From positions 1 to 38,147 of the IMG/VR virus record IMGVR_UViG_3300017909_003696: 38,147 nt of DNA. One strand, 5' to 3'. The translations under genes and the position numbers were made by a program. The DNA comes from a virus (taxonomy: Duplodnaviria; Caudoviricetes). Under the pieces are notes generated by a model. It saw only the letters and a program-made list of their open reading frames with translations, had not been told where the DNA came from and did not search any database. This document shows, piece by piece, positions 4,515 to 36,999 of this stretch (position 1 is its first letter; the number at the start of each line of letters is the position of its first letter).

Positions 4515-4521
4515 TTATACC

Positions 4522-5519: not shown

Positions 5520-5530
5520 GGAGGTCATTG

Positions 5531-5977: not shown

Positions 5978-6326
5978 CTTTGATACAGGAATGACTCGCG
6001 ATAAATATTTTGCGATGAAAGAACAGTTAGGACAAGAACCTGTAGAAAGTGAAATTCCTCCAGACTTAGAAGATTTTCCTGAGATAGTAAATTATGCGAT
6101 TTCTGCTTTTAATCTATTAGGCGATAGAGTATACCCCGAAATTGGATATACAGGCAAAGATTATTCAAAATTACCTTATATTTTAGAAATTTACAATATA
6201 GACGATAAAGAGTATTTTCTTGAACTACTGAACTGGTTGGACGCCAGAGCTATTAAAAAATCTTCAGAACAAATGAAGAAGGAGTATGAAAAGCTAAAGA
6301 GACAATCTAGTGGCAAACGAAGTTAA
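5967..6326 (+). CDS. Tail assembly chaperone extension (gpT-like), probably reached by +1 frameshift; frame open from 5916
   Basis: Overlaps the chaperone ORF in the +1 frame and overlaps the TMP start; L.DR......YTGKDY motif; ATG 5967 has no properly spaced SD. Confidence 0.75.
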   Translation: MFLNFDTGMTRDKYFAMKEQLGQEPVESEIPPDLEDFPEIVNYAISAFNLLGDRVYPEIGYTGKDYSKLPYILEIYNIDDKEYFLELLNWLDARAIKKSSEQMKKEYEKLKRQSSGKRS

Positions 6327-17941: not shown

Positions 17942-18339
17942 ATTATATTATATATAAAGAAGCTACAGGAGAAATTGTAAGAGTAGGACACTGTACTAGT
18001 GATAATGACCATTTAGTACCTAGTAAGTGTGGGGAAGGAGAAAGTGTACTTGAAGGTTCCGTGTCCGATATAAGCACTCAAATGGTGAAAAATGGGGCTT
18101 TAGTAAGTAAGCCCCAAGATGAAATAGATGCAGCAGCAAGTGCAGAAGCTAATTCCAGAAATAGAATGGATAGAAATTTTGAACTAACGGCTACAGACTG
18201 GACTCAAGCATCGGATGCTCCACTTACAGATAGCAAAAAGGCTGAGTGGCGAAGTTACAGACAGGCGTTAAGAGACTTGCCAGCACATACAAACTGGCCT
18301 CTTCTTAATGAGGAAGACTGGCCAACTCCGCCCACATAA
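17938..18339 (+). CDS. Tail fibre assembly chaperone
   Basis: R..RN..L..TDWTQ..D.PL......W..YRQALRDLP...WP..P motif; ATGA overlap with the hub/fibre gene. Confidence 0.85.
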   Translation: MNYIIYKEATGEIVRVGHCTSDNDHLVPSKCGEGESVLEGSVSDISTQMVKNGALVSKPQDEIDAAASAEANSRNRMDRNFELTATDWTQASDAPLTDSKKAEWRSYRQALRDLPAHTNWPLLNEEDWPTPPT

Positions 18340-18342: not shown

Positions 18343-18386
18343 TATAAAAAATAATTCTTGACTCCCCACGTCCCTTTTGTTATAAT
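18343..18386 (+). promoter_or_regulatory. Sigma70-type promoter (extended -10) heading the fibre cluster
   Basis: TTGACT (18358-18363), 17-nt spacer, TGn-TATAAT (18381-18386), upstream TATAAAAAATAATTC; GGAG SD before ATG 18407. Confidence 0.88.
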
Positions 18387-18406: not shown

Positions 18407-18757
18407 ATGAGTGCAGCAAATTATGATATCGTAATTGACCAAGGCTCAAACTTTGCTATAGACGTAGAGGTAAAAGAGTCTGGTCTTGTAAAGAACCTTG
18501 CCGGGTATGCAGCTCGTGCGTCCGTAAAAAGCTCCAAAAGTGCAACTACTAATGCTGCCACCTTTGACTGTACTATTCCTGTTCCTACAGATGGAAAAGT
18601 AAAAATGGAAATGGCTGCAAGTACTACCGCCAGTCTTTCCCCTGGTCAATATTTCTACGACTTAGAAATTCATACTTCCGATAATAGTATTGTAAAAAGA
18701 CTTATCGAAGGCACTGTTAATATCTCTGCGGGTATAACAGTAGGTGTAGCAAGCTAG
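18407..18757 (+). CDS. Collar / fibre-anchoring protein (T5 p132 / BppU-N-like Ig fold)
   Basis: I.IDQG..F, NL.GY.AR, G.V......T..L..G.Y.YDLEI, R.IEG.V.I...IT; position between central fibre and side fibres as in T5. Confidence 0.72.
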   Translation: MSAANYDIVIDQGSNFAIDVEVKESGLVKNLAGYAARASVKSSKSATTNAATFDCTIPVPTDGKVKMEMAASTTASLSPGQYFYDLEIHTSDNSIVKRLIEGTVNISAGITVGVAS

Positions 18758-19185
18758 TGGCAGAACTAGGCACTCAGGCCATAATAACTGAAGAAATTAC
18801 TACTCTTACAGTAGGTGGCGCAGATGCCGATGCAATTACTGTAAGTCTTTCTGGTGATGAAACCGAGCTTTCCGTAAATAATTTTGCTCTACCAGCACAA
18901 GTAGCTGCAGCTCAGATTGGTTTCGCACAATACGGCCAAATTGCAGGCCCCTCTATGCTAGAGGCCGTCAGACAACTAGCAGATTTAGCAATGTATAGAC
19001 AGGCTGCTACTCCTGTTGCGGGTCTTGGTGGCGCTTCCCTTAGTGAGGGAAATTTGTGGTATGATACTGCAAATAATCAACTAAAAGTATATCGCGAAAC
19101 TAGCACAGGGTTCTTTGAGTTCGTACCTATAATAGTAGGCAACATCTCACCAGATTCTGATACGCTAGATGCAGGAGCCTTTTAA
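18757..19185 (+). CDS. Putative fibre adaptor protein
   Basis: GTG start overlapping TAG; contains EGNLWYDT..NQLKVY module; ends TLDAGAF. Confidence 0.6.
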   Translation: MAELGTQAIITEEITTLTVGGADADAITVSLSGDETELSVNNFALPAQVAAAQIGFAQYGQIAGPSMLEAVRQLADLAMYRQAATPVAGLGGASLSEGNLWYDTANNQLKVYRETSTGFFEFVPIIVGNISPDSDTLDAGAF

Positions 19186-19204
19186 GGCCAACCGGAGTTC
19201 CTAA

Positions 19205-20950
19205 ATGGCTCAAACAATTCAAATTAAAAGAAGGTCTGGAAGTTCGGGAACTCCTAGTACAATGGCTTCGGGGGAGCTTGCGTATAATTCGCATTCAACT
19301 GAAGAAAAATTATTTATAGGAAGACCCGGCACCGAAGATGGAAATGGTAATACTTCTACTATTGACGTAATTGGCGGTAAGTACTTTACAGATTTAATGG
19401 ATCACACGCTGGGAGCTCTTACCGCATCCAGCGCAATTTTAGTTGATTCAAACAGTAAAATTGATAAGCTGCTTACGGGCAACATACGCATCAATGATAC
19501 TACAAATAAGATTGATACCTCTACAGGTAATCTTATATTAAATCCTGCCGCAAATCTTGATATCGAAGCAGGAACTGTTGATTTTTCTACTCAAGCAACA
19601 GAATTTTCTATTGCTGATAACTCAGCAACAGGCCTTACGATCAGCGAAGGTGCTAATAACTATGTTACTTTAGTTACTACTAATTCCTCTGAGCAAATTA
19701 AATTAAATAAACAACTGCATCTCGGTCTTAATGGAGCTGCGGGCTATACTTTTCCTACAGCCGACGCTACAACTACAGGACATGCTTTAGTTTCTGATGC
19801 TGCTGGAACACTTACGTTTCAGGCAGTATCAACAGTGCTTACAATATCGGATGATAATTCAGCGCAACAAGATCTTGCACAGCTCAATGGTGAGCTTAAA
19901 ATTCTTGGAACTAATCCGATTAATACAGCAGTTACTACTAGTGGAAATGATGTACTTCTCACTGTTAGTGCAACTGCGGCCACCCAGGGAGCAAATGCTG
20001 GAGCAGCTTCTCTGGGGATTGCTTCATTTAACAGCGCGGATTTCAGTGTCTCTGGAGGCTTTGTAAGCCTTGGCACAGTTCAAAACTTAAGTGTTGATAA
20101 TATAAATATTGATGGAAATGTAATTTCCTCTACTGATACTAATGGAAATATTTCTTTAAATCCAAACGGTACCGGTGTTGTAGATGTAAACTCCAGCCGA
20201 ATTACTAATGTTGTAGACCCTACTCAGGCGCAAGATGCAGCTACTAAAGCATACGTAGATGCTGTAAAACAAGCATTAGATATAAAAGACTCCGTTCGCG
20301 TTGCGACTCAAGCTAACTTTACCGCCTCCTATAATAATTCTGCGGGAACTCTTACTGCAACAGCTACGGGCGCACTCACTATTGATGGCATTGCTTTATC
20401 ACAAGGTGATAGAGTGCTTGTGCAGAATCAAACAAGTCAAGTTGAAAACGGCATCTATGAAGTAACAACTGTGGGCTCAGCAGATCCTGCAGTAAGTGCT
20501 GTTCTTACAAGGTCTTCCGACGCAAATGTGAATGCTGAAGTAACTGGGGGATTATTTGTATTTGTAGAAGAAGGCTCAGATGGAGATAACGGCTTTGTTC
20601 TTACAAATGTAACAGGAGAGGCAACTCTTGGTACAACTAATTTAGTATTTACTCAGTTTTCAGGTGCCGGTCAAATTGTTGCTGGTGACGCGCTCTCAAA
20701 AAGCGGTAACACGTTAAATGTAAACGATGATGATATTACATTAGAGGTATCAGCAGATGCTTTACGAATTAAGGGAATTTCAACAACAGCAATAGGTGAT
20801 TTACTTATTGGAGCAGCCTCTGATGCAGGCTATACTCGACTTGTAAAGCCATCCGGAGATGCAAGTACAACTAATCATGATTACATTCTAGCTATGAACG
20901 GCAGCGGAGCAGCTCAATGGTCTAATACGTTAGACGGCGGCACATACTAG
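19205..20950 (+). CDS. Tail fibre protein with Mtd_N-like N-terminus
   Basis: N-terminus IQIKR....P.....GELAY; neck-like RITNV.DP..AQDAATKAYVD; SVRVAT...IDG..L..GDRVLV.NQ....ENGIY domain; ends TLDGGTY. Confidence 0.78.
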   Translation: MAQTIQIKRRSGSSGTPSTMASGELAYNSHSTEEKLFIGRPGTEDGNGNTSTIDVIGGKYFTDLMDHTLGALTASSAILVDSNSKIDKLLTGNIRINDTTNKIDTSTGNLILNPAANLDIEAGTVDFSTQATEFSIADNSATGLTISEGANNYVTLVTTNSSEQIKLNKQLHLGLNGAAGYTFPTADATTTGHALVSDAAGTLTFQAVSTVLTISDDNSAQQDLAQLNGELKILGTNPINTAVTTSGNDVLLTVSATAATQGANAGAASLGIASFNSADFSVSGGFVSLGTVQNLSVDNINIDGNVISSTDTNGNISLNPNGTGVVDVNSSRITNVVDPTQAQDAATKAYVDAVKQALDIKDSVRVATQANFTASYNNSAGTLTATATGALTIDGIALSQGDRVLVQNQTSQVENGIYEVTTVGSADPAVSAVLTRSSDANVNAEVTGGLFVFVEEGSDGDNGFVLTNVTGEATLGTTNLVFTQFSGAGQIVAGDALSKSGNTLNVNDDDITLEVSADALRIKGISTTAIGDLLIGAASDAGYTRLVKPSGDASTTNHDYILAMNGSGAAQWSNTLDGGTY

Positions 20951-20958
20951 AACTCTTT

Positions 20959-20990
20959 TTCTCCCGCGTATATACGCAGATTTAGGAGAG
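20959..20990 (+). promoter_or_regulatory. Palindrome plus anti-SD in the leader of the 97-aa gene
   Basis: Perfect 12-bp palindrome GCGTATATACGC (20966-20977), flanked by TTCTCC (20959-20964) complementary to SD GGAGAG (20985-20990). Confidence 0.5.
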
Positions 20991-20994
20991 CCAA

Positions 20995-21288
20995 ATGGCA
21001 CAAACTATCAAATTAAAACGTTCTGCTACGGCAGGAAACGTTCCCACTACCTCGGATTTAGCTCTGGGCGAACTTGCTATGAATACTGCGGATGGCGCTA
21101 TATACATGAAAAAGAATGTTGGCGGCACAGAGTCTATTGAACACATCAATCGAGGAAAAGTATTTTTAACTCAAAGTCCAAATCCCCCATCAAATGCACA
21201 GGTAGGAGATATGTGGAGAGACTCTGATGATTTTAAAACTTTTATATATTACTCTGACGGTTCGTCGGCATTTTGGGTTCAAATATAG
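20995..21288 (+). CDS. Two-module fibre adaptor (Mtd_N-like + GDxW module)
   Basis: MAQTIKLKRS...P....L..GELA.N..DG..Y followed directly by P.PPS....GDMW.DS......IYY.DGSS..WV. Confidence 0.72.
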   Translation: MAQTIKLKRSATAGNVPTTSDLALGELAMNTADGAIYMKKNVGGTESIEHINRGKVFLTQSPNPPSNAQVGDMWRDSDDFKTFIYYSDGSSAFWVQI

Positions 21289-21297
21289 GAGTTTTAA

Positions 21298-24200
21298 ATG
21301 GCAATAAGTTTTCCTACAAGCCCTCAAAGTGGAGACGTAATAACTTCAGGAGATGTCTCTTGGACTTTTGATGGTGTTCGATGGAACCATAATATTAAAG
21401 GTTTAAGTGGTGTTGATTTTACTCTCTCCGCTGATTCTGGTTCAAATGATACTGTTACTCTTGGTGTAGATACTCTAAATTTTGAAGGAGGCACCGGTCT
21501 AAGCACTACCGTATCAAATAATAATATAAAGATAGACTTAGATAATACAGCTGTATCTGCTGGAGTCTATGGTAGTTCTAGTTCAATACCGCAAATCACT
21601 GTTGATGCTCAGGGCAGACTAACGAGTGTTAGTGCTGTTTCAAGTATTCCTACGGCAGAGCTAGGCGTAGAAAGCGCAACGCTTGCTGCCACTGCTATTA
21701 CAAATGGTACTGCTTACGGTATTAAAACTCTTGGTAATACTAATTTTGTATCTTTAGGTGCTCAAAGTGTAAATATATCTTCTACATCTAATCCTCAATT
21801 AGTAGAGACTCGTGAGTATATTATCACAAGTCTCGGTACTCCTGCGGCTGCAACTACTACTGCTGCGAATAAAGTTTATAAAATTGTAACTCTAGGTAAT
21901 ACAGACTTTACCACTATAGGAGCAAGTGCAAATACAGTTGGTGTTGGTTTTACTGCAACGGGAGCAGGCAGCGGAGACGGTACTGTTGTAGAGATTACTA
22001 ACTGGATTATTTTAGGAGCAGGAAGTCAAAGTGCTCCTCCTGCTGTGGGAGACAGATTTAGATCTAGGGGCACTGGAAATGCTAGCTATGGTACTGGAAC
22101 TGTTCTTGAAACGTTATTCACTGCAACAGGCGCAGGCTCAGGAACAGGCACTGTTTGTTTAGATACTACTCATTTTATAACTTTTGTAGACAGCACTTCA
22201 GGAACCTCAAAGATATTTGTAGAAAACGGACTCCAGTATAATCCTGGAAAAGGTACTATTTTTGCAAGTAATCTGGATGGTCAGTTTACAGGAAGATTTG
22301 AGGGCGTATTTAAAGGTTCTTTAGATACTGAAGTTATTGCGGGTCAAGCAACTTCATCTGCAACGGTTGATATTACTCAGCATGATGACGGAAATAAACC
22401 TAGCGGTGATAATTTATTTTTTGTAGGTATTGAGAGCGCTCTAAGTGGAGTAGGTCAGAGCCTGAAAGCTGACTCTCGTTTCTATTATAGTGAAGATGAT
22501 GATAAGTTTGTAGTAAATGCTATTTCAACTTCTGGAAATGTTGAAGTTGGTGGTAATCTTACTGTTACAGGAACAACAACTTTTAATGGCGGCACAATCA
22601 CTATGGGTGATGCTGCTACTGATAATGTTGTATTTGGTGCAGATGTAAATTCTAGTATTATTCCAAATACTGATGATACATACGATCTTGGTAGCTCTAC
22701 GCAAGAGTGGAGAAACTTATTTATTGATGGCACTGCAAACATTGATAGCCTAGTAGCTGATACAGTAGATATTAATGGGGGTACGATTGATGGCACAACC
22801 ATTGCGACCTCTGATATTACTGTAGGCTCTGGTAAAACTTTAGATGTTTCTCTAGGTACGCTTACTCTTGCGGATAATCAAATATCTGGCGATAAAATTA
22901 ATGCTGGTACAATTGATAATATAACTATTACTACTTTAGCGTCAACAACTGTAGATACAGAAAATATAGAAGTCTCTAACTTAAAAGCAAGAGATGGAAC
23001 CGCGGCAGGGTCTATAGCAAATAGCACCGGAAAAATAACTCTTAATGACGCTATTCTTACTACAGCAGACATTAATGGTGGTAATATTGATGCAACAGCT
23101 ATTGGGGTTAATTCACACAGTACTGGTAAGTTTACCACATTAGAGGCAACTAATTCAATTACTGGCGACTTAACTGGTGACGTAACAGGAGGATTAACTC
23201 TTGGAGGCTCTGACACTTTAGATGTTTCTGCAGGTACGCTTACTCTTGCGAATAATCAAATATCTGGTGATAAGGTGGATGGAGGAGCCCTCAGCTCTGT
23301 TACCATTGATGCCGAGTTAAATACAATAAGTAATTTAGATGTTGACGATCTTAAGTCAGGCGTTCTAGATACTGATCTAAACTCTGTATCCTCAAACGAT
23401 GATACTCTTGCTTCCGCAAAAGCAGTAAAAGCCTATGTTGACTCTAATATCACTACACAGGACTTAGATTTTGTAGGAGATGATGGAACTGCTAGAAGTG
23501 TTGATTTAAACTCTCAGTCTCTGACTATCGCGGGCGGCACAGGTCTTACAACAGTAGGAAGCGGTCAAACTCTTACTGTAAACTTAGCAGCAGCTAGCGG
23601 TGGTGGTATAACTGTAAATGCTAATGATATACAAGTTGATGATACCGTTGTAAGAACAAGTGGTGCTCAAAGTATTGGCGGCAATAAGACCTTCAGCAAT
23701 GATATTCAAATTGATGGAAACCTAACAGTAGGAGGCACAACTACAACTATTAATTCAACTGTTGTTTCTGTTGCGGATCCTGTTTTTGAGATAGGAGACG
23801 ATAGCTCTGATGATAACTTAGATCGTGGTATTAAGTTTAAATATAATAGTGGAATTTCTCCTCAAATTGGATTCTTTGGGTTTGATGACTCTAAAAATAA
23901 ATTTGTAGCACTAAGAAACGCTACTGATTCTTCTTCTGTTTTTAGCGGAACTGCACTGGATGCAGAGTTTGGGGCTATAGATACTGCGGGGCTAACCGGC
24001 ACTCAATCAATAACGGCGGCAACGGGCGGATTAATACTACGTCACTCTGATAACACGGTTGTTTTGAGAACTACTCAGGGAGGCAACTTTTTAAATAACC
24101 CTGTCTTTTATGGGAATATATCAAACCAGGATGGTACCACCGTAGCTTTATCTGTTAGAACCGGGGACCCGCAAGGAACTGTTCCGTTTCTAGAAGGAAG

Positions 24201-27200
24201 AAGTAGAAGAGCTGAAAGAATTTCGGTAACAACTGCTGACGAAAGTAGTGATACGAATCGTAAACTTATATTTGAGAGCGCCAGTGCAACCAACACCGGC
24301 GAAAATTCCACCTTCACAAACTATAATTCATCTAATTTTTATGCTGTTGAAAGTGACTCAAATAACTTAACTTTTAATCCGTCTACCCATACTTTAACAG
24401 TAGATAATGTAACTGGTAATGTAACTGGTAATCTTACTGGTATAGCAACAAAGTCTACAAAGGCTGCTGTAACTGAAACGGGTACAACTAATTCTGAGTT
24501 TCCCGTTATATTTGGAGATGCTACTGCAGAAACAGTTAGCTCTGTAGACTATCATGGTTTAAGGAAGGATGTAAGTGTAGCTGGTGATATTAATGCGTTT
24601 ACATATAACCCAAGCACTGGAGCTTTACGAGCTACTTCTTTTATTGGTAATATTAGTGGCTCTTCTAGTGTTGCAAGCCAGATTGATATTTCTGTACAAG
24701 ACTCAAGCTCTGATAATCATTTTATTACCTTTGTTGATGGTACATCCTCGGCACAAGAAGTAGAGGTAGACTCAAATCTTAAATATGTTCCTTCAACAGA
24801 AGCTCTTACTGTTGGGGGCGCACTAACAGCAGGTTCTTTTGTTAAATCGGGAGGCGCTGCAACATCATTTTTAATGGCGGATGGTACCACTACAGATATA
24901 AGCGGTGGAACATATAATATTGATATTAGCGGTAATGCCGCTACAGCAGGCACGGCAACAACGGCTACAAGTCTAGGAAGCCTGAGCACTGTAGGCACTA
25001 GCTCCACTGCTGTAGCAATACTTCTCGATGACAGTGGAACAAAAAAATCAGACACCAATAAGTTAAAGTATAATGCTTCTTCAAATCAGCTAGAATTAGA
25101 TAAAATTCAAATTGGCTCGTCAGGCTCTTTTAACCAAGCCAGTAATGGCACCTTTACTGTAAGTAGTCCTGCAACTTTTAATCATAATTTAACTCTTGGG
25201 GATGGCACTACAAGAACTCTTACTATTACAAGCAGACTTGCTAGTGACTTTTTGCCCAATGTAAATAACAGTAGAAGTTTAGGCTCAACCTCACTAAAAT
25301 TTGCAAATGTTCATGCCACAACATTTACAGGTAGTCTAACTGGTGATGTAACTGGTAACACAGCAGGCACACACACGGGTGCTGTCTCTTTTACTGGCGA
25401 TTCGTCTTTCGCCTCTGGAAGCACGCTTAACTTTGCAAATGTAACTGTAAGTAATTTGACTCTACCTATAGATTTAAATGGGCTTACTGCGGCAGATATA
25501 GACTCTTCTCAAGACAGTATTGCATTCATTGATGCCACAAATAATGGTAGCAGAAAAGAGAGTATTGCAGATTTTGCAACAAATTTTGTAAATGGAGCAA
25601 ACAGTGCACTTACAGCATCATCTGGAAAGCTTTCTCTGAATCTTGATGGTTTAGCAAGTGAAGTTCTTTCCGTTCCAAATGATTCAATCGTATTTATTGA
25701 TGCGGATGGTTCTGCCTCCAAGAAAGAATCCGTGTCTGACTTTGTGGGTGCAATAGCTGGAACAAATCTTACACAAGATGGTTCAAATAAAACTATTGGC
25801 ATACTAAACGAAACCATAGAAGACATTGTAGGGGCAATGTTTACAGATAGTTTTGTTACTTATAATGATAATGGTGGCAGCAGTGGAACAATAACAATAT
25901 CGCAAAACACTTCAAGTGGTGTAAATCTTGCGGGCTCTACGAATAATACCAATCATTTTATTCTTATGAGCGATGGCCAAACGGGTGCTTCAACACTACG
26001 AACGGATGCTATTTTACGATTTGATACTACTGATGATACTTTAAATGTACCTAAGCTGGATATTGATACTGACTTAGATTTGGATGGAGCAACTGTATCA
26101 TCAAGCATTATTCCGGCTGCAAACAATCAGCACGATCTTGGTAGCACGAGCAGTAAGTGGAAAGATATTCATGTAGCGGGCACTATTTCAGGTAGTACTC
26201 TTTCTGGAACTACTCTAACTGGAACATTAAACACAGCTTCTCAAACAAATATTACTGCAGTAGGAACACTTGGATCGCTCGCAGTAACAAATACTATAAC
26301 AGCAGCCAATGTTACAGCAAGCGGTACAGTAGAGTATGGTTCCTTAAGTGATGGTGCAATTACTATTACTGCATTTGTTGATGAAGACGGCATGGACTCT
26401 AATAGTGCTACATTAGTTCCAACTCAACAATCAGTCAAAGCATATGTAGACTCTCAAGTCGGAGGATCAGTAACAAGTGTTGAAGTAACTGCTGGCACTG
26501 GTTTATCCGGTGGAGGCACTGTTACAACTTCAGGGACAATTAATTTAGATGTAGACTTATCTGAACTTACTGATATGACAGCCACAATGGTCGGTACAGA
26601 TGAGTTTATAGTGCTTGACGGAGGCGCTGATAGAAGAAAGGCCGCCAATGAAATTGGATTAAGTGTATTTAATAATGATAGCGGTTTTACTACAAATACC
26701 GGTACTGTAACTGAAGCATTCAAAACTATTTCAGTAAGCGGACAATCGGATATAGTAGCGGATGGTGCTACCGATACTCTTACAATTGCTGCTGGTACAG
26801 GCGTATCTTTGACAACCACTGCGGGCACTGATACACTTACAATTGGAACCTCTTTAGGTATAAATGATCTGTCCGATGTTGATACGTCGGGACATAGTAA
26901 TGGCAAAGTTTTAACCTCAAATGGAACTAACTTTACATTTGAAACTCCTGCAAGCCAATCTGTTGCAACAGATTCGACGCTAGGAATAGCACAATTTGAC
27001 TCTACAGACTTTACGGTTTCTTCTGGTGATGTTACTCTGAACGCCGAAAGGGTGCAGGACATTGTTGGGGCTATGGTTTCCAGCAATACAGAAAGCGGGA
27101 TCGCTGTAACCTACGAAGATTCAGATGGTACGCTCGATTTTGCAGTTTCACTTAACAGTTTTGATACAGACAATTTAAGCGAAGGTTCAACTAATCAGTA

Positions 27201-29043
27201 CTTTACAAACGCTAGGGCTCAAGGCGCTATCACAGTAAATGATGCAGGTGGAGATGGTTCCTTAGGATATAGTAATGGGACAATTACTTACACAGGCCCG
27301 AGCCAATCTGAAGCAAATGCACGTATAGATGCCTATATAGTAGCGGGAGCCGGTCTCGATTACGCCAGTGGACAGCTCGATGTTGATACTAGCGTCATAC
27401 GAACAACGGGCAATCAAACTATTGGTGGTATAAAAACATTTAGTTCAGATGTTACTGCTTCAGAAAACTTAACAGTTACTAAAAATTTAACAGTAAATGG
27501 GAATACTACTCTTGGAAATGCTACGTCAGATACTACATCTGTTTCGGGAAATCTTAGTGTTGCTGGAGACTTAACAGTAAGTGGCGGCAGTTTTACAGTA
27601 GACGCTACAAGTTTAAGTGTACAGGATCCTCTTATAGAGCTAGCAAGAGGTAATGATACAGCAGATTTACTTGATATTGGTTTATTCGGAAAGTATGATA
27701 CTTCTGGAAGCCAAGACTTATACGCAGGACTATTTAGAGATGCCACTGATGGAAAGTGGAAACTGTTTGAAGATTCACAAAGTGCTCCTTCAAATAATGT
27801 AATTGATATTACTGCTACAGGTTACACTAAATCCAAACTTGTAGCAGATCTTGAAGGAACTGCAGATTTAGCAACTAAAGTAGTTGTAAGTGCAAATAAT
27901 ACTGAGTCTGGTACTTTCTTTGTTCCTTTTGTTTCGTCTCAGGCAGGAAATCATGATTTAGAAACAGATAGTCAACTTTTTTATAATCCAAGCACGGGTA
28001 GACTTACTGCTGGTAATATACAGGGAACATTTATTGGAAACCTTACTGGTAATGTAACAGGCAACATTACGGGTAATATAACAGGCGGTGTTACAGGTAA
28101 TGTAAGTGGTAATGCAGGAACAGCATCCGCTTTACAAAATGCAGTTGCTTTTGTAATTAAAGATACTTCTCATGCTTTTGATGGTACCCAAAGCCCTAAC
28201 TTTACAGATGCAATCGGTACTTTATTTCCAAGCACCAAGCAGCTTGGAACTACGATAGCATATGATTCAAGTGATGAAGATTTTGATGTTACAACAACAG
28301 CACTGTATAATGGAACAAGTAAAAAGCTAGAGTCTACGTCTACAGGTTTAGAGTTATTTGGTCACATAATTCCGAGTGCAGATGTTACTCATGATTTAGG
28401 AAGTAGCACAAAAAGATTTAGAGACCTATTTCTAAGTGGCACAACGATTACGCTTGGCTCACAGACAATTAGTTCGGACAGCACAACTGTAACTGTTTCC
28501 GGAACTTTATCGGCAACAAATATATCAGGAAGTCTTACAGGTAATGTGACAGGATCAGCAGATACTCTGACTACCGCTAGAAACTTTACTGTTGGATCAA
28601 CAGATCACTCGTTCAATGGATCTGCAAACATAAATCTTACAGAGGCAATCCAAGATACAGTAGCCTCGATGTTTACTCATTCAAATCATAGTTCTGTTAC
28701 TGCAAGCTATGATGATACAAATGGTGAGATTGATCTTACAGCATCTGCTGGAGGAGAAGGCGGCGGCGGTGCTACTGTAAACTGGCTTATAAAAACAGCC
28801 TCTTACACAGCATCTGCAGAGGATCAAATAATAGTTAATGGTAGTGGCTCAATTACGATAACATTACCGAGTAGTCCTAGCGCAGGAAACTTTGTAAAAA
28901 TTAAAAATATTTCTAGTAGTGTTACCACTGTGGGCAGAAATGGTAGTAATATAGACTCTTCAGCACAAGATGGTACTGTTGCTGCAGGAAGATTTGTAGA
29001 ATTAGTTTATGTAGATTCTACTATAGGCTGGGTGGAGATTTAA
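21298..29043 (+). CDS. Giant mosaic tail fibre protein (2581 aa)
   Basis: G/S/T/N/D-rich; many recurring fibre modules (YNPST knobs, IIP....DLGS....W, TGNVTGN, KAYVDS, QDIVGAM); SD AGGAG; C-terminal ITLP.SP..G...I..GRNG..I...LVY.....GW domain. Confidence 0.85.
22837..23273 (+). repeat. 59-nt direct repeat (22837-22895 and 23215-23273) inside the giant fibre gene
   Basis: Both copies encode TLDVS.GTLTLA.NQISGDK; 55/59 identical by eye. Confidence 0.85.
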
Positions 29044-29046
29044 AAA

Positions 29047-32000
29047 ATGACAAAAGTATTAGGTAAAGATGTAAGAAGCCTAACTACCGGAGCAGGAGTA
29101 ACTAAGTCGGGTACAGACGACAATCCTACTATAGTAGTTACTAATGTTGCTACTGCTGATGCTTTGAGCACAGCAAGAACTATAGGTGGAGTATCATTTG
29201 ATGGCTCTGCAAATATTAACTTGCCTGGAGTAAATACAACAGGTAATCAAAATACTAGCGGCTCTGCAGCTACTCTAACAACAGCAAGAACTATTGGTGG
29301 GGTATCCTTTGATGGTTCAGCAAATATTAATCTACCTGGCGTAAACACCACAGGTAATCAAAATACTAGCGGCTCTGCAGCTACTCTAACAACAGCAAGA
29401 ACTATAGGTGGGGTATCCTTTGATGGTTCTGCAAATATTAACTTGCCTGGAGTAAATACGGCAGGTACTCAAGATACTTCTGGTAATGCTGCAACAGCCA
29501 CTATACTTGCAGTAAGTAGAAATATTGGTGGTGTATCTTTTGATGGATCTGCAAATATTAACTTGCCAGGAGTAAATACATCAGGTAATCAAGATACTTC
29601 TGGAAATGCAGCAACAGCAACCGCACTTGAAACTGCTCGAACTATTGGTGGAGTATCATTTGATGGCTCTGCAAATATTAATCTGCCCGGCGTAAATGCA
29701 ACTGGTAATCAAAATACTACAGGATCTGCTGCTACACTTACAACCGCTAGAACTATAGGTGGAGTATCATTTGACGGTTCAGCAAATATTAATCTACCTG
29801 GAGTTAATACAGCAGGTAACCAAAATAGTTCTGGAAACGCTGCAACGGCAACAGCTCTTGAAACAGCAAGAAGTATTGGTGGTACTTCTTTTGACGGCAC
29901 TGCAGATATAGTTCCAAATATAGTTACAGATACTACACCCCAGCTTGGTGGAAATCTGGATGTCAATGGAAATACTATAACATCGGTAAGTAATGGAAAT
30001 ATAGAGATTGATCCTAATGGCTCTGGGTTATTCAAAATTAAAGGTAACTCTACAGCCGGTTCTGGTTCTATAACTCTTAACTGCGAGCAGAACTCTCATG
30101 GTATTAAGCTTCAAGGTCCTCCGCACAGCGCAGGAGCAAGCTATACTTTAACATTTCCTAATGATGATGGAAATGCAGAGCAAGTGCTTCAAAGTAATGG
30201 AAGCGGGACTCTATCGTTTGTTGACCAAATTAAAACTATACAGGCAGAACTTACTATCTCTGATTCAGCCAGTGCAGGAGATGTAATTGTTTATGAATTA
30301 GCAAACTCTCAGTATGCAACTGCGGGAGAGAGTACAACTCCAGCAAGTCTTACTGAAACAACTACAAGCATTGAATACTTAGGGACTAATAATAATAATT
30401 TTGAAGAAGCATTGCTTGTTCCTGCTTATGATAATAAAATATTTATATTAACCAATGAGTCCTCCACAGTTTACTATAGGTGGGTTACATTAGCTTCAAA
30501 TGGAAGCGCAACAATTACTAGCACTACTGCTTTACCTGGCACAACGGCTCAAGTTACTGGTGGTCCTATGTTTATGGCTGCAAGTAATAAGCTTGTTATG
30601 ATTGGCTCTGATGGTTCAAATACTTACTACAAAGTTGGCACTGTTAATACATCAACAGGAGCAATAACTTGGGGTAGTAATACACAAATCTGGACTGGAG
30701 GTTCAACTTGGAACAGCAACAATAATATTGTATATGATGACAATGACGGAAAATGGATAATAGTATACGAAGATAGCTCAAATGGACTAATGAGAGCATT
30801 AACATATGATAGTTCAAATGATACTTTTTCCGCCGGATCAGCGGTAACTCTGGGTTCTGCTCCTTCTGCAACTTCAGTGGCATACGATCCTGTTAGAGAT
30901 GCCGGCTTAGCAGTTTATGGGTCTGGAGAAGACGTTTACTTTAGAAAATGGACTTCTTCTAACGGCACAATTACACTTGGCTCTCAAACTCGTGTAGAGA
31001 ATACAGAATTAGATAGCGACGATCAGCCTGGAAGCGTATTTTTTGATGGAGAAAATGCCACTGGTCTAAATATAGTGTATCTTCCAGATCGTGCAAAATT
31101 TATGATGATCTATCAAATTAGGTTTAGTGATGGATCTAATTATAGAATTTGGCCTGTAGGATTTAATAGTGCTACCATAGAAGCAAATGGCGATGTTACA
31201 ATTGCAAATAAAGGAACGGATTCTGGAATAAACTATAATTTTCTTAGTGCTTCTACTGTTGCAGCGGCTGCGGATACTGATACAAATACTGTAGTACTGC
31301 TTATAAATGGCAGCTATAATCAAAGCCGTAAATTAATGCTAAGTCGTCTTACTATGGCTTCTAACGGAGCAATCTCTGCATCGGGTTCAAGTGTTAATTT
31401 AATGACGCACAGTGCTAGCATTAATCCCGGTACATTAGTATATAAAACTGGTGGGTTAATGTTTGGGTATACCAGATATGGTTCATCCGCAAATATGATT
31501 AGCGCGTTAGATGGTGAGATGTATGGTATACAGCAGCAGATCACTGCAACAAATATTTCTAATACGATAGTTGGTATCGCTGAAGAAGCTATTTCTGCGG
31601 GCGCTTCGGGCACTGTAAATTTAATTGGTGGAGTTGACAGAAATCAATCCAGTTTAACAACAGGCTCTACATATTATCTTACATCTGATGGCACGATTAG
31701 CACAACTGCTGATAGTTATAACAAGAAGTTAGGTATTGCTATTTCTGCAACAGAAATTTTAATGGAGCATACTACTACTACTAGCTCTTCCGGAGATATA
31801 GAGGGAGTAACAGCGGGCACAGGACTTTCTGGGGGAGGTACATCTGGTACAGTTACTTTAAATGTTGCGGATTTAACAGTTTCAGAGTTTGCCGCTGACT
31901 CTATACAATTAAGTTCTGAGTCTTTTGCAAATAATGATACGTCTTTGATGACTTCTGCTGCGATTGAGGATAAAATTCTAAGCTATGGATATTCTACTTC

Positions 32001-33174
32001 TGGTGGAGGAATAGCCTCTGTAGTAGCAGATACTACTCCACAGCTTGGTGGAAATCTGGATGTTAATGGTCAAAGTATAGTAAGTGTTAGTGGTAATAAT
32101 ATTGCCATAACTCCAGATGGTAGCGGAAAAATTATATTAGATGGACTAAGCTGGCCAACTGCAGATGGAAGTGCAAACTATGTATTAAAGACGGACGGTT
32201 CAGGAAATCTAAGCTGGACAGCGCAAAGTGGTGGTGGAGGAGCTTCCGTAACAGTCTCAGATACAGCCCCTGGCAGTCCTTCCTCCGGGGATTTATGGTG
32301 GAGTTCTGCTTCTCTAACACCATATATTTATTATGCTGACGGTAGTAGTAATCAGTGGGTAGAATTTGCAAATCCTGACTCCGGAACTATATCTGGTGTT
32401 TTGTCAGACTTAACAAATGTAAGTAGTACAAGCCCAAGCACTGGCCAAGTTTTAAAATGGAGCGGAAGTGAGTGGGCTCCTGCCGCAGATTCAACAGGAA
32501 CTGGAGGAATAGCCTCTGTAGTAGCGGATACGACTCCGCAGCTTGGTGGCGCATTAGATGTAAATGGGCAAGACATTACTAGTGTAAGTAATGGAGACAT
32601 AGAATTAGACCCAAATGGAACTGGCGTTGTTGTATTTAAAGGAAACTCTACAAAGGGTGCCGGACAGTTTAAACTAAATTGTGAACAAAATTCGCATGGA
32701 ATAATTATAAAAGGGCCTCCGCACAGTGCGGCTGCTTCTTATACCCTTACGCTACCGGATAATGACGGAGATGCGAATCAGGTATTAAAAACAGATGGAT
32801 CTGGTAATTTAAGCTGGGTAGCACAAAATGGAGGGGGAGGAAGCTCTGCTTTCATAAAAGCATATAGATACGATGATACTCTTGCGGTAAATACAGGGTC
32901 AAAACGACTATATCTGCATGACTCTTTTACGCTTGATTCTATTGATGCTTTTGTAGACACTGCGCCTGCTGGGGCGGCCGCTACTGTGGATTTAATTAAA
33001 AATGGTGCCGGGAGTGCCTTTAAAACAATAACAATTGCTGACGGAGCTACGTCTAGTGTCAATAATAGTGATACTACAACGTTTTCTGAAGGCGACTATA
33101 TAACAGTAAATATAACTCAAGTGGGCTCCAGCACCGCGGGTGCCAACCTATATTTAGTATTCAGTTTTTCATAA
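29047..33174 (+). CDS. Tail fibre protein (1375 aa) with tandem repeats, internal beta-propeller-like region and C-terminal beta-sandwich
   Basis: Seven TARTIGGVSFDGSANI repeats; three DTTPQLGG.LDVNG modules; propeller-like region; GDLWW module; C-terminal TAP.G....VD..KNG...GD.I.V.I.QVGS..AG domain. Confidence 0.85.
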   Translation: MTKVLGKDVRSLTTGAGVTKSGTDDNPTIVVTNVATADALSTARTIGGVSFDGSANINLPGVNTTGNQNTSGSAATLTTARTIGGVSFDGSANINLPGVNTTGNQNTSGSAATLTTARTIGGVSFDGSANINLPGVNTAGTQDTSGNAATATILAVSRNIGGVSFDGSANINLPGVNTSGNQDTSGNAATATALETARTIGGVSFDGSANINLPGVNATGNQNTTGSAATLTTARTIGGVSFDGSANINLPGVNTAGNQNSSGNAATATALETARSIGGTSFDGTADIVPNIVTDTTPQLGGNLDVNGNTITSVSNGNIEIDPNGSGLFKIKGNSTAGSGSITLNCEQNSHGIKLQGPPHSAGASYTLTFPNDDGNAEQVLQSNGSGTLSFVDQIKTIQAELTISDSASAGDVIVYELANSQYATAGESTTPASLTETTTSIEYLGTNNNNFEEALLVPAYDNKIFILTNESSTVYYRWVTLASNGSATITSTTALPGTTAQVTGGPMFMAASNKLVMIGSDGSNTYYKVGTVNTSTGAITWGSNTQIWTGGSTWNSNNNIVYDDNDGKWIIVYEDSSNGLMRALTYDSSNDTFSAGSAVTLGSAPSATSVAYDPVRDAGLAVYGSGEDVYFRKWTSSNGTITLGSQTRVENTELDSDDQPGSVFFDGENATGLNIVYLPDRAKFMMIYQIRFSDGSNYRIWPVGFNSATIEANGDVTIANKGTDSGINYNFLSASTVAAAADTDTNTVVLLINGSYNQSRKLMLSRLTMASNGAISASGSSVNLMTHSASINPGTLVYKTGGLMFGYTRYGSSANMISALDGEMYGIQQQITATNISNTIVGIAEEAISAGASGTVNLIGGVDRNQSSLTTGSTYYLTSDGTISTTADSYNKKLGIAISATEILMEHTTTTSSSGDIEGVTAGTGLSGGGTSGTVTLNVADLTVSEFAADSIQLSSESFANNDTSLMTSAAIEDKILSYGYSTSGGGIASVVADTTPQLGGNLDVNGQSIVSVSGNNIAITPDGSGKIILDGLSWPTADGSANYVLKTDGSGNLSWTAQSGGGGASVTVSDTAPGSPSSGDLWWSSASLTPYIYYADGSSNQWVEFANPDSGTISGVLSDLTNVSSTSPSTGQVLKWSGSEWAPAADSTGTGGIASVVADTTPQLGGALDVNGQDITSVSNGDIELDPNGTGVVVFKGNSTKGAGQFKLNCEQNSHGIIIKGPPHSAAASYTLTLPDNDGDANQVLKTDGSGNLSWVAQNGGGGSSAFIKAYRYDDTLAVNTGSKRLYLHDSFTLDSIDAFVDTAPAGAAATVDLIKNGAGSAFKTITIADGATSSVNNSDTTTFSEGDYITVNITQVGSSTAGANLYLVFSFS
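29170..29910 (+). repeat. Tandem array of 111/120-nt units (37/40 aa), 6 full + 1 partial
   Basis: Unit starts at 29170, 29281, 29392, 29512, 29632, 29743, 29863. Confidence 0.95.
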
Positions 33175-33197
33175 CTAGCATATCAGGAGAAAATAGA

Positions 33198-34397
33198 ATG
33201 TATGCAAAATTAAAATTTAACAGCGGAGTAAGCACAGCTCTGGTTATTAGGGATATAGTTCGTCTAATTACAGAGTCTGCGGCAGGCAACGCATCGCTTT
33301 CTAATTTAGGCTCAATTGATACCAGTAATTCAACACTTACAGCAGGCACGAATAGTGGCTGGACGTTGTATACTGGGCAATCTATACCTGCAAATAGTGC
33401 CTCCGCGTCTAACAGCTCTGACTCATATTACACTCTGCAAGCTACATCAGCTACTAATAGTCGAACAAAATACTGTGCGATACATGGAAATTGTCACTTT
33501 AGTTCTGGAAGTGGTATGACTTTAACAAGTACGTCTCAAGCTGGAGTTATGTTAAGTAATGTAGACGATCCTACTTTATCTAATGCAAATACAAATTTTA
33601 ATTTTAGCACCGGATATAACTCTACAAGCACTAGTTATATGAACGATAAAGGCTTCATTATGGGAGCAAACGGAAAGGAGTTACATATTTGGGCTGATCC
33701 TACTAGAATTGTTCTCTTTTCTCCGGAGCACAATGGGGCGAACTCTGCAAGTGCCGGTCCATTACTTATTGCAAATTTGGAGGGAAACCAAGGCACACTT
33801 GATGTTTGGAAGCAGAAATGTCCTACAATGACACTTTATGATTCTGTTCGTACCGTATCTACTAGTGGAGGCTACGACGCGCACGGAAGGGGTGAAACAT
33901 ATTATACTAAGAACTATGGGGGTAGATTTTTTCAATTACATAATTTCACAACTCAAGGCCCAAATCATCCTGGGACAACATGGTCGATAGTATCATATAT
34001 AAGCATTAGTACCACAGCTAACGTTACAGGCAATCTTAGAGGCAGACAAATCAACAGCCCCTGGACAGAAGATGTCGGATCAACTATGGTCGATGATTTT
34101 CATGACGGTTTTCATAGCACTATACTTAACTACACCGGAGTAGGAGATGCAGGTCAGGGTACGAGCACTCATGTTGCATTTGATAACTCTGGGAATAGTG
34201 CACTGTCTGTAAAACCTCTAACTATAAAAGTTGCTGCATCACCCACGGCATATAACTTCTCTGATCTTACGGCAATTTATATAGCACCCTCCAATATAGG
34301 CACTACTCCTAGTCAAGTAACAATAGGGAGTGATACCTATACTTATATTACAATGGATGCAGCAAACTACCGATCTTATTTGATTAAGCACACATAG
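33198..34397 (+). CDS. Hypothetical virion protein, candidate fibre tip / receptor-binding protein
   Basis: 399 aa, S/T/N/G and aromatic-rich, non-repetitive; SD AGGAG; inside the fibre operon. Confidence 0.55.
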   Translation: MYAKLKFNSGVSTALVIRDIVRLITESAAGNASLSNLGSIDTSNSTLTAGTNSGWTLYTGQSIPANSASASNSSDSYYTLQATSATNSRTKYCAIHGNCHFSSGSGMTLTSTSQAGVMLSNVDDPTLSNANTNFNFSTGYNSTSTSYMNDKGFIMGANGKELHIWADPTRIVLFSPEHNGANSASAGPLLIANLEGNQGTLDVWKQKCPTMTLYDSVRTVSTSGGYDAHGRGETYYTKNYGGRFFQLHNFTTQGPNHPGTTWSIVSYISISTTANVTGNLRGRQINSPWTEDVGSTMVDDFHDGFHSTILNYTGVGDAGQGTSTHVAFDNSGNSALSVKPLTIKVAASPTAYNFSDLTAIYIAPSNIGTTPSQVTIGSDTYTYITMDAANYRSYLIKHT

Positions 34398-34406
34398 GCG
34401 TTTATT

Positions 34407-34604
34407 ATGTCATTAACAGTACAAGATGAAAATGGAAATAACGTTACGGTAGCTTATTTAGTAATAGAAGACCCTATTGCTGACTCACTTACTTTAGGTA
34501 CGCAGGGGTTACTAAAACCTAATAGTATTGTTTTTGAAGATGGAGTAGCTTCATACTTTACGTCTGCTACAAGCACAGCAACAGATCCAGAATCTTGGGA
34601 GTAA
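34407..34604 (+). CDS. Hypothetical protein (65 aa)
   Basis: Fills the gap between co-oriented genes; acidic; no family recognised. Confidence 0.6.
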   Translation: MSLTVQDENGNNVTVAYLVIEDPIADSLTLGTQGLLKPNSIVFEDGVASYFTSATSTATDPESWE

Positions 34605-34608
34605 TATA

Positions 34609-34905
34609 ATGGTTTTAGACGAAACAATCACGATAACAAAAACGTATGTTGACACAGCAGGCTTTTTAAGGGCTGTGGGTATAACTCTTACTTTATCAAA
34701 TGGTACTAACGAACATATTTACACAAAAACTTTCTGCATAGAAGAAGGGGTTTTACTAGAAAACTCACTTACTTGGGAAGAGCCGATATTATTAGATATA
34801 GTTAATTCTAGATCCTTTTCGGCTTTCAGGCATAGTTGCTTGCAAGAAGTAGATATTATATGGAAAGGTTATACTGAAAGTCAAACAAATATAATATACG
34901 AGTAG
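34609..34905 (+). CDS. Hypothetical protein (98 aa)
   Basis: GGGAG SD upstream; tight packing; no family recognised. Confidence 0.6.
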   Translation: MVLDETITITKTYVDTAGFLRAVGITLTLSNGTNEHIYTKTFCIEEGVLLENSLTWEEPILLDIVNSRSFSAFRHSCLQEVDIIWKGYTESQTNIIYE

Positions 34906-34920
34906 TGGTAGGAGAATAAA

Positions 34921-36492
34921 ATGCCAGTTAATTTTACAGATAGCCCAAGTAATGGAGACACCCTCACAGCCGGTGGAAGAACTTATACGTATGATAGCAC
35001 TGCAGGAGTATGGGATATTACTTCCACAAGCGGTGGAGGTGGTGACAGTGCAGCCGGGGGTGGAACTCTTACAGCAACCGCAAGCGGCTCCCTTGCAAAT
35101 GGAGATTTAGTTCTAGTAAACTCCGATGGTAGCGTAAGTGCAGTATCGCAAACATCAAGCAGTGCAGGCGTAGGATCTGCAACTGTATTTGAGTCTGCTT
35201 CTACTTCCTATACTGCAGCTACGTTTGACTCAAATTCGGAAAAAGTTGTAATTGCATATGAAGACGTTGGAAACTCACAATATGGGACAGCCGTGGTAGG
35301 AACAGTATCGGGTAATAGTATTAGTTTTGGTACTCCAGTTGTTTTTGAAAGTGCAGAAGTAAGCTATGTTACAGCTACATTTGACTCAAACTCAAATAAA
35401 GTTGTAATTTTTTATAGAGATCACGGTAATTCAAATTATGGAACAGCGGTTGTTGGAACAGTTTCTGGTACAAGTATTAGTTTTGGCACTCCTGTCAATG
35501 TAGCTTCGCACAATGTCACAGACACTGCAATTACATTTGATTCTACCAATAATAAGATTGTAGTTGCTTATAGGAATAATACTGTTTCTAGCTATGGAAC
35601 AGCCGTGGTAGGAACAGTATCGGGTACAAGTATTAGTTTTGGTACTCCAGTTAATTACTATACAGGAATTAGTCTTCGTAATGCTCTTGCATTTGATTCT
35701 AGCAACGGTAAAGTTATAGTTGCTTACAGGGCTCACTCAAATAGTGGGCACGGGAGAGCACAAGTAGGAACAGTATCGGGTACGAGTATTAGTTTTGGCT
35801 CATCAGTAACGTATAACTCTTCAGGAACTACTTTAGAGTATAATAATGTGGTATTCGATTCTACTAATAATAAAGTAGTTATTCTGTACAGGGATTTAGC
35901 AAGCAGCTATTTTGGGGCTGCTATTGTAGGAACAGTTTCTGGTACAAGTATTAGTTTTGGCAGCGAAGCTACGTTTAACAATGCAACCACAAATTACATA
36001 TCTGCTCATTTTGATTCAGCAGCAAATAAGGTTATAATTGCTTATCAGGATGGAGGAAATTCTAGTTACGGGAATGCCATAGCAGGAACAGTTTCTGGTA
36101 CCAGTATTAGTTTTGGCACAGAAATTACATTAGAGAGTGCAAATAGTTCTTTTTTTGGATCTACCTTTGATACAGCTTCAAATAAATCTGTGTTTTCTTA
36201 TGTGGACGGAGGAAATTCAAATTATGGAACTGCTATTGTAGGACAACTTGCTGCTTCGAGTTCTACAAATCTTACAGAAACCAACTATATAGGAATCTCC
36301 GATGCAGCATACTCAGACTCTGCTACTGCAACAATTCAAGTAATTGGTTCAGTAGATGATGCTCAGTCGGGGCTAACGGCTGGTCAAGCTTACTATGTAC
36401 AAACTGATGGGTCCCTTTCAACAACTGCAGACTCTCCTTCAGTATTCGCAGGAACTGCTGTTTCAGCCACTGAAATAATAGTTAAAGGATAA
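34921..36492 (+). CDS. Beta-propeller fibre-associated / receptor-binding protein
   Basis: N-terminal F..SP..GD module, Gly linker, about seven 52-aa repeats (FDS...KVV..Y.D......YGTAVVGTVSGTSISFG); SD AGGAG. Confidence 0.8.
   Translation: MPVNFTDSPSNGDTLTAGGRTYTYDSTAGVWDITSTSGGGGDSAAGGGTLTATASGSLANGDLVLVNSDGSVSAVSQTSSSAGVGSATVFESASTSYTAATFDSNSEKVVIAYEDVGNSQYGTAVVGTVSGNSISFGTPVVFESAEVSYVTATFDSNSNKVVIFYRDHGNSNYGTAVVGTVSGTSISFGTPVNVASHNVTDTAITFDSTNNKIVVAYRNNTVSSYGTAVVGTVSGTSISFGTPVNYYTGISLRNALAFDSSNGKVIVAYRAHSNSGHGRAQVGTVSGTSISFGSSVTYNSSGTTLEYNNVVFDSTNNKVVILYRDLASSYFGAAIVGTVSGTSISFGSEATFNNATTNYISAHFDSAANKVIIAYQDGGNSSYGNAIAGTVSGTSISFGTEITLESANSSFFGSTFDTASNKSVFSYVDGGNSNYGTAIVGQLAASSSTNLTETNYIGISDAAYSDSATATIQVIGSVDDAQSGLTAGQAYYVQTDGSLSTTADSPSVFAGTAVSATEIIVKG
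35281..36243 (+). repeat. About 156-nt period blade repeats
   Basis: GTVSG(T/N)SISFG recurs six times with a seventh partial YGTAIVG; 35281-35340 and 35593-35652 are 57/60 identical. Confidence 0.9.
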
Positions 36493-36498
36493 AAAATT

Positions 36499-36738
36499 AT
36501 GAAAACAATAATCAGAAATGAAAGTAATTGGTCTCTATATATTTTTGAAGATAGCGTATCCATTTCTATAAACTCAGACTCTATAACTACGCCCGATTTT
36601 ATTATTGGAGACTTAAACTCTAGTAATGCTACTGTAGTGGAAAATATTACGCCTCCCAGTGACTGGACAGGCTGTAAATATATCTATGAGAACTCAACGT
36701 GGACATTAAATTCGGAGTGGATTGAGCCACCCACTTAG
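36499..36738 (+). CDS. Small fibre-associated protein, possible Tfa-like chaperone
   Basis: P.DW.G.KY.Y....W..N..W..PPT pattern; SD AAGGA; last gene of the operon. Confidence 0.6.
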   Translation: MKTIIRNESNWSLYIFEDSVSISINSDSITTPDFIIGDLNSSNATVVENITPPSDWTGCKYIYENSTWTLNSEWIEPPT

Positions 36739-36739: not shown

Positions 36740-36768
36740 AAAAAAGGGGCCGAAGCCCCTTTCTTTTT
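36740..36768. terminator. Bidirectional Rho-independent terminator between convergent modules
   Basis: A6-GGGGC-CGAA-GCCCC-TTTCTTTTT; T tract on both strands (TTCG loop on the - strand). Confidence 0.92.
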
Positions 36769-36988
36769 ACTCCTCTGGGGGAGTTAGTGCTGTCTCTAGA
36801 TCTAAAACAAACCCCTCTTTTGCTCGGGTGAGCTGATGAGTTTTTGCTCGTAAAGGAGACAACTGGTTTTCAATATCTTGAATTTGATTTACAAGATATT
36901 TTTGCTCGTCTGTAAGATCTGCAATAGGATATTCCTGCCCATTAAAGTTCAATACAGGATTTTCTTCAGTTTGATCAACTTCTGACAT
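36767..36988 (-). CDS. Hypothetical protein (73 aa, beta-hairpin + coiled coil)
   Basis: L.FNG.EY.I.DL.DEQK.LVNQI.D pattern; co-oriented with nrdB; ends at the terminator. Confidence 0.75.
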   Translation of the reverse strand: MSEVDQTEENPVLNFNGQEYPIADLTDEQKYLVNQIQDIENQLSPLRAKTHQLTRAKEGFVLDLETALTPPEE

Positions 36989-36999
36989 GATAAGGTCCC

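Follow-up and report, generated by a model that had tools for sequence, protein, structure and literature searches.

How do the separate proteins encoded by a long phage fibre locus come together in a single fibre? We addressed this question in IMG/VR virus record IMGVR_UViG_3300017909_003696 (Duplodnaviria; Caudoviricetes), the complete record of an uncultured T5-like siphophage, which was analysed over its whole 38,147 bases (hereafter, the window). The fibre block at 18407..36738 contains 11 open reading frames (ORFs), all on the + strand, which sum to 6056 amino acids (aa) and are separated by gaps of -1 to 44 nt. An earlier reading made from the sequence alone (the initial annotation) had rightly described 11 co-oriented genes of about 6000 aa. 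Our results suggest that these genes probably encode a T5-like side (L-shaped) fibre as separate proteins, joined and branched by three kinds of matched modules. We are less certain of the exact tree than of the docking model.

We named four sequence modules: DGG, the C-terminal motif LD[AG]G[AT][FY]*; P1, the head MAQTI.[IL]KR...GELA; S2, the "socket" P..P..GDxW...YY.DG...W; and P2, the "plug" head M...F..SP..GD. Profiles were built from three pattern scans of IMG/VR (117, 133 and 118 segments), and the loci compared here are a sample of at least 131, at least 133 and at least 120 stretches per scan, with flanks for 80 each. S2 and P2 are common, as even strict patterns retrieve about 660-750 stored IMG/VR stretches. 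P1 is N-terminal in all 241 complete genes and P2 in 270 of 273. In the alignments, near-invariant positions include Y35, D37, Q42 and W43 of S2 and F5, P6, P9 and W29 of P2. With a cut at 20 bits, the window contains two P1, two P2 and two S2 modules. S2 occurs in the 97-aa protein (gene 20995..21288; residues 58-97, bases 21166-21285, 54.3 bits) and inside the 1375-aa protein (gene 29047..33174; residues 1067-1107, bases 32245-32367), and P2 starts just two proteins, of 2581 aa (gene 21298..29043; P2 at 21298-21396) and 523 aa (gene 34921..36492; P2 at 34921-35025, 44.4 bits). This is the distribution that the initial annotation had given for its second pair. It had also placed each P2 gene downstream of one S2 module; both are indeed downstream, but the 523-aa gene stands four genes behind its S2 gene, not one.

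The sampled loci showed a strong association between the two modules. In the S2-scan loci, a P2 gene directly follows 28 of 68 S2 genes, compared with 25 of 695 other genes. The order is directional: an S2-only gene precedes a P2 gene 38 times with 3 cases of the reverse, and an S2-containing gene precedes a P2-only gene 40 times with 9. For 77 P2 genes, S2 of a different gene at most 4 kb away lies upstream only in 44, downstream only in 5, on both sides in 19 and on neither in 9. For 36 S2 genes, P2 within the same distance lies downstream only in 23, upstream only in 1, on both sides in 10 and on neither in 2, which leaves 33 of the 36 with a P2 gene at most 4 kb downstream. Loci from the P1 scan, taken as a control, contain P2 or S2 in 1 of 59. 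The two pairs do not cross, as none of 117 DGG-only ends precedes P2, none of 146 S2 genes without a DGG end precedes P1, and the 4 DGG ends that precede P2 genes all carry S2 too. No natural S2-P2 or DGG-P1 fusion was found among the fetched loci.

The numbers of the two modules also match. At an expect value (E) of at most 1e-5, with three copies of one phage and three weaker rows dropped, 29 of 52 contigs have as many S2 as P2 modules, where permutation gives a mean of 9.0 and a maximum of 20, and the two counts are within one in 42; these contigs are mostly fragments picked for holding one module, and kin among them are not independent. Enrichment of such adjacencies across genomes had been proposed as a check of the initial annotation, and the outcome is strongly in favour for both pairs, with direction, matched counts, no crossing and natural exchanges of plugs. 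Chance resemblance among low-complexity fibre proteins could draw on the shortness of the motifs, but profile scores are bimodal, the window matches reach 27-84 bits, and the adjacency and count tests are far from permutation; these statistics refute it, and we give it a negligible probability.

The predicted structure of S2 bears on another explanation. Pfam held no convincing family for S2 or P2, and a sequence search of the PDB with the 97-aa protein and the S2, P2, P1 and KNG profiles (KNG is the C-terminal beta domain of the 1375-aa protein, 32878-33171) returned nothing significant, the best of the matches being that of P2 to phiKZ gp184 (E 0.0015). The S2 monomer model has four strands, with a predicted local distance difference test score (pLDDT) of 93. 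Fold searches with this model gave no match at E of at most 0.001, and all had Z below 5; the nearest folds, none significant, are trimerising modules (the C-terminus of CBA120 TSP3, Z 4.7, Mtd, HylP and collagen XV/XVIII). On this basis S2 could merely be a trimerising knob. More generally, the modules might be homotrimerisation or registration knobs, or anchors to a common virion site, with order and counts arising from tandem duplication and shared ancestry, and P2 and S2 often do stand in tandem in one protein, which inflates the raw count correlation. However, when genes with both modules were removed, the counts were still equal in 25 of 43 contigs (permutation mean 13.3; contigs with all S2 rows at hand). 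Moreover, P2 genes with their own S2 precede another P2 start more often than P2 genes without (24 of 54 versus 16 of 102). Together with the direction of the pairs (38 versus 3 and 44 versus 5) and the joint exchange of socket and plug in relatives described below, this makes the knob explanation quite unlikely. No paper on S2 or P2 was found in a literature search that covered few subscription journals and no supplements.

The first joint lies upstream of these genes. The 142-aa (18757..19185) and 581-aa (19205..20950) proteins end in TLDAGAF* (19162-19182) and TLDGGTY* (20927-20947), and each time the next gene starts with MAQTI.[IL]KR...GELA, as the initial annotation had noted for its first pair. 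The two P1 heads are those of the 581-aa protein (19205-19330; 27.5 bits with the P1 hidden Markov model) and of the 97-aa protein (20995-21147; 84.0 bits); the 581-aa protein also matches tail-fibre PHROGs. Among 2769 deduplicated gene pairs (from 4496), a DGG-type end stands directly upstream of 74 of 114 P1-start genes, versus 44 among the 2468 remaining genes. Upstream bases were no part of the P1 scan pattern, and inspection by eye places many of the 44 among array ends or Mtd_N-like heads that have diverged. Covariation between the residues that follow DGG and GELA (10/11 versus 6/64, with classes picked post hoc) hints at subtypes. In the proposed fibre, this joint would be used twice, 142 aa to 581 aa to 97 aa, as gp36 meets gp37 in T-even phages.

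Indeed, in T6 (NC_054907) gp36 ends in QDFGYY* directly before gp37, residues 1-50 of T6 gp37 score 52.8 bits on the P1 profile, and the head of the 97-aa protein matches T-even gp37 starts, including the T6 gp37 N-terminus (tblastn). By-eye comparison shows a short D-x-G-x-aromatic end common to QDFGYY* of T6 gp36 and LDAGAF*/LDGGTY* of the window. Trimeric gp36 binds the N-terminal region of gp37, according to the available part of PMC3004832. Judged by sequence, pair 1 is already known: it is the gp36/gp37 junction of T-even phages, its head being Mtd_N-like. By its Pfam matches, P1 appears to be a diverged branch of Mtd_N (PF18454, the head of Bordetella phage BPP-1 Mtd): 15 of 62 P1 family members match it at E of at most 0.1 (best 2.3e-7), unlike the 97-aa head of the window, which has no Pfam match. 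A cultured example of a pair-1 chain is Vibrio phage 1.293.O (locus L002), where four genes stand in a row at 6318-10049: DGG(D/S)(Y/F) closes three of them, P1 heads follow at the final two junctions, and the last gene encodes a pectin-lyase-fold protein.

The 97-aa protein consists of P1 and S2 and nothing more, and is therefore likely to convert joint 1 into joint 2. Relatives keep the order collar, 142-like protein (DGG), P1...DGG protein and P1-X protein. Where S2 is present in the last P1 gene of the chain, a P2 start opens the following gene in 7 of 10 cases, and an eighth has a diverged P2-like start; where S2 is absent, this was seen in 0 of 56. The S2 socket of the adaptor would thus take the P2 plug of the 2581-aa trunk. 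Folding of the complete 97-aa protein from a combined alignment was abandoned because MAFFT aligned S2 rows with P1.

The trunk itself, with BppL_N-like shaft repeats behind its plug, appears to end in a third joint at 28783-29082, which the initial annotation had missed. The last 86 residues of the 2581-aa protein (domain at 28783-29040) match residues 95-175 of CBA120 TSP4, its XD1 domain, with E 7e-14, and the same domain matches T4 gp34 (E 1.6e-8), gp10 (E 2.4e-5) and, weakly, gp9. The 1375-aa protein opens with a VLG-type start (29047-29082). We examined 41 genes with a C-terminal XD domain: 16 precede an M-x(0-3)-[VI]LG start and 22 a Y/LxxI[KR] start, so that 36 of the 41 precede either type (two match both), compared with 0 of 52 internal XD copies. 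The background among 5296 is 17 VLG and 49 Y/LxxI[KR] starts, for patterns drawn up after inspection. The 16 VLG cases, window included, belong to one short-ended XD subtype, and a second XD1 subtype precedes the Y/LxxI[KR] starts. The 2581-aa chain ends at XD1, which would leave a binding face free to take the VLG start of the 1375-aa fibre. No paper on XD1 as a terminal socket was found within the coverage of the same literature search. The XD1-type domain also occurs near the N-terminus of 400-490-aa genes in the tandem arrays of loci L496-L557, with no VLG or YxxIK start next; these arrays represent a different use of it.

Among the relatives of the window, labelled G001 to G005, two contain natural swaps of these modules. 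The 1407-aa protein of G002 has a P2 start, although it matches residues 124-1375 of the 1375-aa protein at 66% identity; its gene is followed by the same cassette of 399-, 65- and 98-aa genes. The trunk of G002 has two S2 and the other XD subtype, and a YxxIK-start gene follows it. In G003, a 426-aa protein joins P2 to a stretch that matches the final 400 aa of the 1375-aa protein at 73%, and the 399/65/98 cassette is kept. S2:P2 counts are 2:2 in the window, 1:1 in G001, 5:5 in G002, 4:4 in G003, 4:4 in G004 and 7:6 in G005. By eye, and among kin that are not independent, the window and its relatives show one signature for trunk modules and another for branch modules: adaptor S2 GDMW[RK]..KT[FY] with P2 FP...W.NN, and internal S2 with TPY and P2 FT[DN]. 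This supports the assignment of the 97-aa socket to the 2581-aa plug and of the 1375-aa socket to the 523-aa plug, the latter forming a putative side branch.

These signatures also matter for a variant that keeps the joints but has a different or mixed tree, with P2 plugs interchangeable among S2 sockets and the 399-aa protein away from the tip. One profile covers all S2 and one all P2, the branching domains of KP32/K11 accept a non-cognate partner (available part of PMC13352976), KNG occurs without the 399 family, and the single S2 and P2 matches of ACG-2014f are about 68 kb apart. Free interchange would, however, let the 2581-aa and 1375-aa proteins polymerise endlessly, and the distinct signatures speak for separate use; we regard a mixed tree as unlikely. 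In the assembly that we favour, the joints are likely trimer-on-trimer, and module subtypes would keep the order and stop self-polymerisation.

At the base of the tree, the 116-aa gene (18407..18757) has both the profile of a T5 p132/LtfC-type collar (PHROG 3304, E 5.8e-16) and its position, behind T5-like tail tip genes and with p140-, pb9- and terminator-like genes upstream. According to the available text of PMC10713586, the three LtfA trimers of DT57C are held at their N-termini by twelve LtfC, and LtfA in turn bears LtfB. Because the collar is of this type and LtfC holds LtfA N-termini, the 142-aa protein is likely the root, held by the collar ring by analogy with LtfC/LtfA; its family comes directly behind the collar gene in related loci. 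It also contains a weak third S2-like module (19012-19113; 12.1 bits, under the cut), which is probably a plain knob, as no P2 is left over to pair with it and the YYxDG..QW signature is absent. This module scores higher in relatives L389, L402, L436 and L476. The PHROG 3304 (T5 p132-type collar) model terminates, at positions 126-168, in an S2-like module that matches both window S2 copies; some collars may carry a fused S2 socket.

At the other end, the 399-aa protein (33198..34397) is a candidate adhesin that would cap the KNG domain. It has 23 homologues, and its model (pLDDT 74, predicted template modelling score 0.85) is predicted to share the fold of the side-arm chains of JBD30: the comparison with 8rk3 (VIA) gave Z 17.1 and a root mean square deviation of 4.0 over 278 aligned residues, with the next row at Z 4.4 (Foldseek E 2.4e-3). 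The matched chains are presumably gp47/gp48, since the 317- and 305-residue chains both match and the paper text agrees. These chains bind type IV pili, according to part of PMC11445458. The likeness is limited to the predicted fold, at 9-11% identity, and the window has one gene in place of the gp47/gp48 pair; phmmer found no second paralogue among the window ORFs, although diverged paralogues can escape it. The 399-aa gene comes after the KNG domain in the window, L558, L175, G002 and G003. The 65- and 98-aa genes (34407..34905) travel with it, the whole cassette standing behind the KNG domain also in L558, G002 and G003; profile searches gave no family match for either protein, and they are likely assembly helpers or small subunits. 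The KNG-399 link is thinly sampled, as the KNG alignment was too variable for a locus scan and a single-protein scan gave 4 close loci. The tip position claimed by the initial annotation has moderate support, and we lean slightly towards it.

The 523-aa protein contains seven 52-aa repeats behind its plug and is predicted to form a 7-bladed propeller. A Cyclophil_like2 match (E 1.6e-5, with no passing stretch) was rejected as a repeat artefact. The 523-aa protein shares its C-terminal domain with the 1375-aa protein, and its Atlas clusters consist of viral hypothetical proteins. The 1375-aa protein also holds seven TARTIGG repeats and a propeller-like insert (weak, 23.7 bits).

The chain of the initial annotation, from the collar through the 142-, 581-, 97- and 2581-aa proteins to the 1375-aa protein, with the 523-aa propeller as a branch, fits all these genome comparisons. 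The initial annotation gave no motif for the steps from 2581 to 1375 aa and from 1375 to 399 aa; for the former, XD1 and the VLG start supply a module pair. We infer from the genomes the physical contacts, the trimers, the location on the virion and the adhesin roles; the identity, positions, order, counts and swaps of the modules are directly visible in them. Several observations count against our proposal. S2 outnumbers P2 in 18 of the 52 contigs and P2 outnumbers S2 in 5, and the cultured Synechococcus phage MA10 departs from the count rule with 13 S2 versus 9 P2 matches. The loci were chosen by these same motifs and include related phages, which do not count as independent; VLG/YxxIK and DGG-x were set up as classes after data inspection. 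S2, P2 and P1 bear a distant resemblance to one another (hhalign 83% and 80%). In pair 1, 40 of 114 P1 genes have no DGG-type end directly upstream. XD1 in gp9, gp10 and TSP4 is described, in the available part of PMC8825819, as a spacer that does not bind trimeric partners. Finally, no homologue of the 399-aa protein was detected in G004 and G005, which do have KNG; the same search also missed a 393-aa gene of G026 with a similar start, so misses do occur.

Several parts of this assembly have been published: end-to-end segments (T4), a branch domain with a docking peptide (KP32) and branched T5-like fibres (DT57C). The view that the pairing logic is undescribed is therefore not supported, since pair 1 is the gp36/gp37 junction and branch-domain/docking-peptide assembly is on record (available parts of PMC3004832 and PMC13352976). 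As in T-even gp36-gp37, separate trimeric segments would be set end to end in gene order; unlike there, the window uses this joint twice in series on a siphophage collar, continues with two other joint types and has no gp35 knee. The T-even long tail fibre as a whole is not matched either, neither in its gp34/gp35/gp36/gp37 set nor in its contractile baseplate, as the window tail is T5-type and non-contractile. In KP32/K11/KP34, G7C gp66/gp63.1 and CBA120 TSP1-4, similarly, an internal module holds the N-terminus of a second receptor-binding protein and bodies can be swapped (parts of PMC13352976 and PMC8825819). For the KP32 podophages, the branch domain and docking peptide were demonstrated by deletion and swapping (same part of PMC13352976), and the conserved N-terminal docking segment of such systems has its counterpart in P2, N-terminal in nearly all its genes (270/273). 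S2, with 40 aa and four predicted strands, has no sequence match to the XD2/XD3 jelly rolls of gp10-like systems, and its fold searches gave weak rows only. Unlike gp10-like branching systems, it appears to be reused recursively and is counted one-to-one with the plugs that it would take.

The window shares with T5 p132/pb1 and DT57C LtfC/LtfA/LtfB the collar family, the T5-type tail tip and a putative branched lateral fibre (available part of PMC10713586). These phages have one or two fibre proteins, compared with at least seven in the window, and other connector modules. The XD1 of CBA120 TSP4, T4 gp34, gp10 and gp9 resembles the 2581-aa protein's C-terminal domain in sequence; elsewhere it is an internal spacer in the available account of PMC8825819, whereas in the window it ends the chain and covaries with the start of the next gene.

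A broader proposal, which we find evenly balanced, is that a few orthogonal connector standards (DGG/P1, S2/P2 and XD1/VLG or YxxIK, with matched subtypes) are common to aquatic phages and can be converted into one another. Architecture could then be read by counting plugs and sockets, and tiny adaptors would convert standards, so that T5-like and T4-like phages could trade fibre bodies and adhesin cassettes. Should the proposed binding at the joints be real, fibre trees of uncultured phages would be predictable from genome sequence, many "hypothetical" genes could be given a place as trunk, adaptor, branch or tip, and plug exchange as a route of host-range evolution would become directly testable. 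The locus offers a compact test case, with three joint types in series and relatives with natural swaps.

Around the fibre block, a promoter-like sigma-70-type site, TTGACT-17-TATAAT with a TG extension, is predicted on the + strand at 18358..18386 (intergenic, 11/12 match), and a motif scan predicted a terminator-like hairpin with U tract between converging genes at 36743..36762 (+ strand). Candidate sites for the single promoter and single terminator of the initial annotation are found where it had put them. The scan detected no + strand terminator between the block and the upstream tail genes, and totals are at chance level (55 promoter-like sites versus 52.1 in shuffles, two of them scoring 11/12, including 18358..18386; 15 terminator-like sites versus 12.4), so significance of these sites by number was rejected. 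The last gene of the block, of 79 aa (36499..36738), has no family match and possibly encodes a fibre chaperone, given its position. Beyond it, at 36767-37959 on the - strand, a DUF6447-like 73-aa gene and a ribonucleotide reductase small subunit gene both converge on the terminator.

Bases 1-18,339 are occupied by a T5-type siphophage head and tail block, with genes for a tail terminator, major tail protein, p140-like tube, tape measure, pb9-like distal tail protein and 2169-aa hub/central fibre; the nearest cultured tail proteins are those of T5-like phages, at about 29% identity. The fused 2169-aa hub/central fibre is followed by a Phage_tail_APC chaperone (PF16778) within 11432-18339, apart from the side-fibre block. 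At 1260-2690, a 476-aa gene weakly matches, in its C-terminal part only, the model of the T5 tail completion protein p143, which spans about 255 aa.

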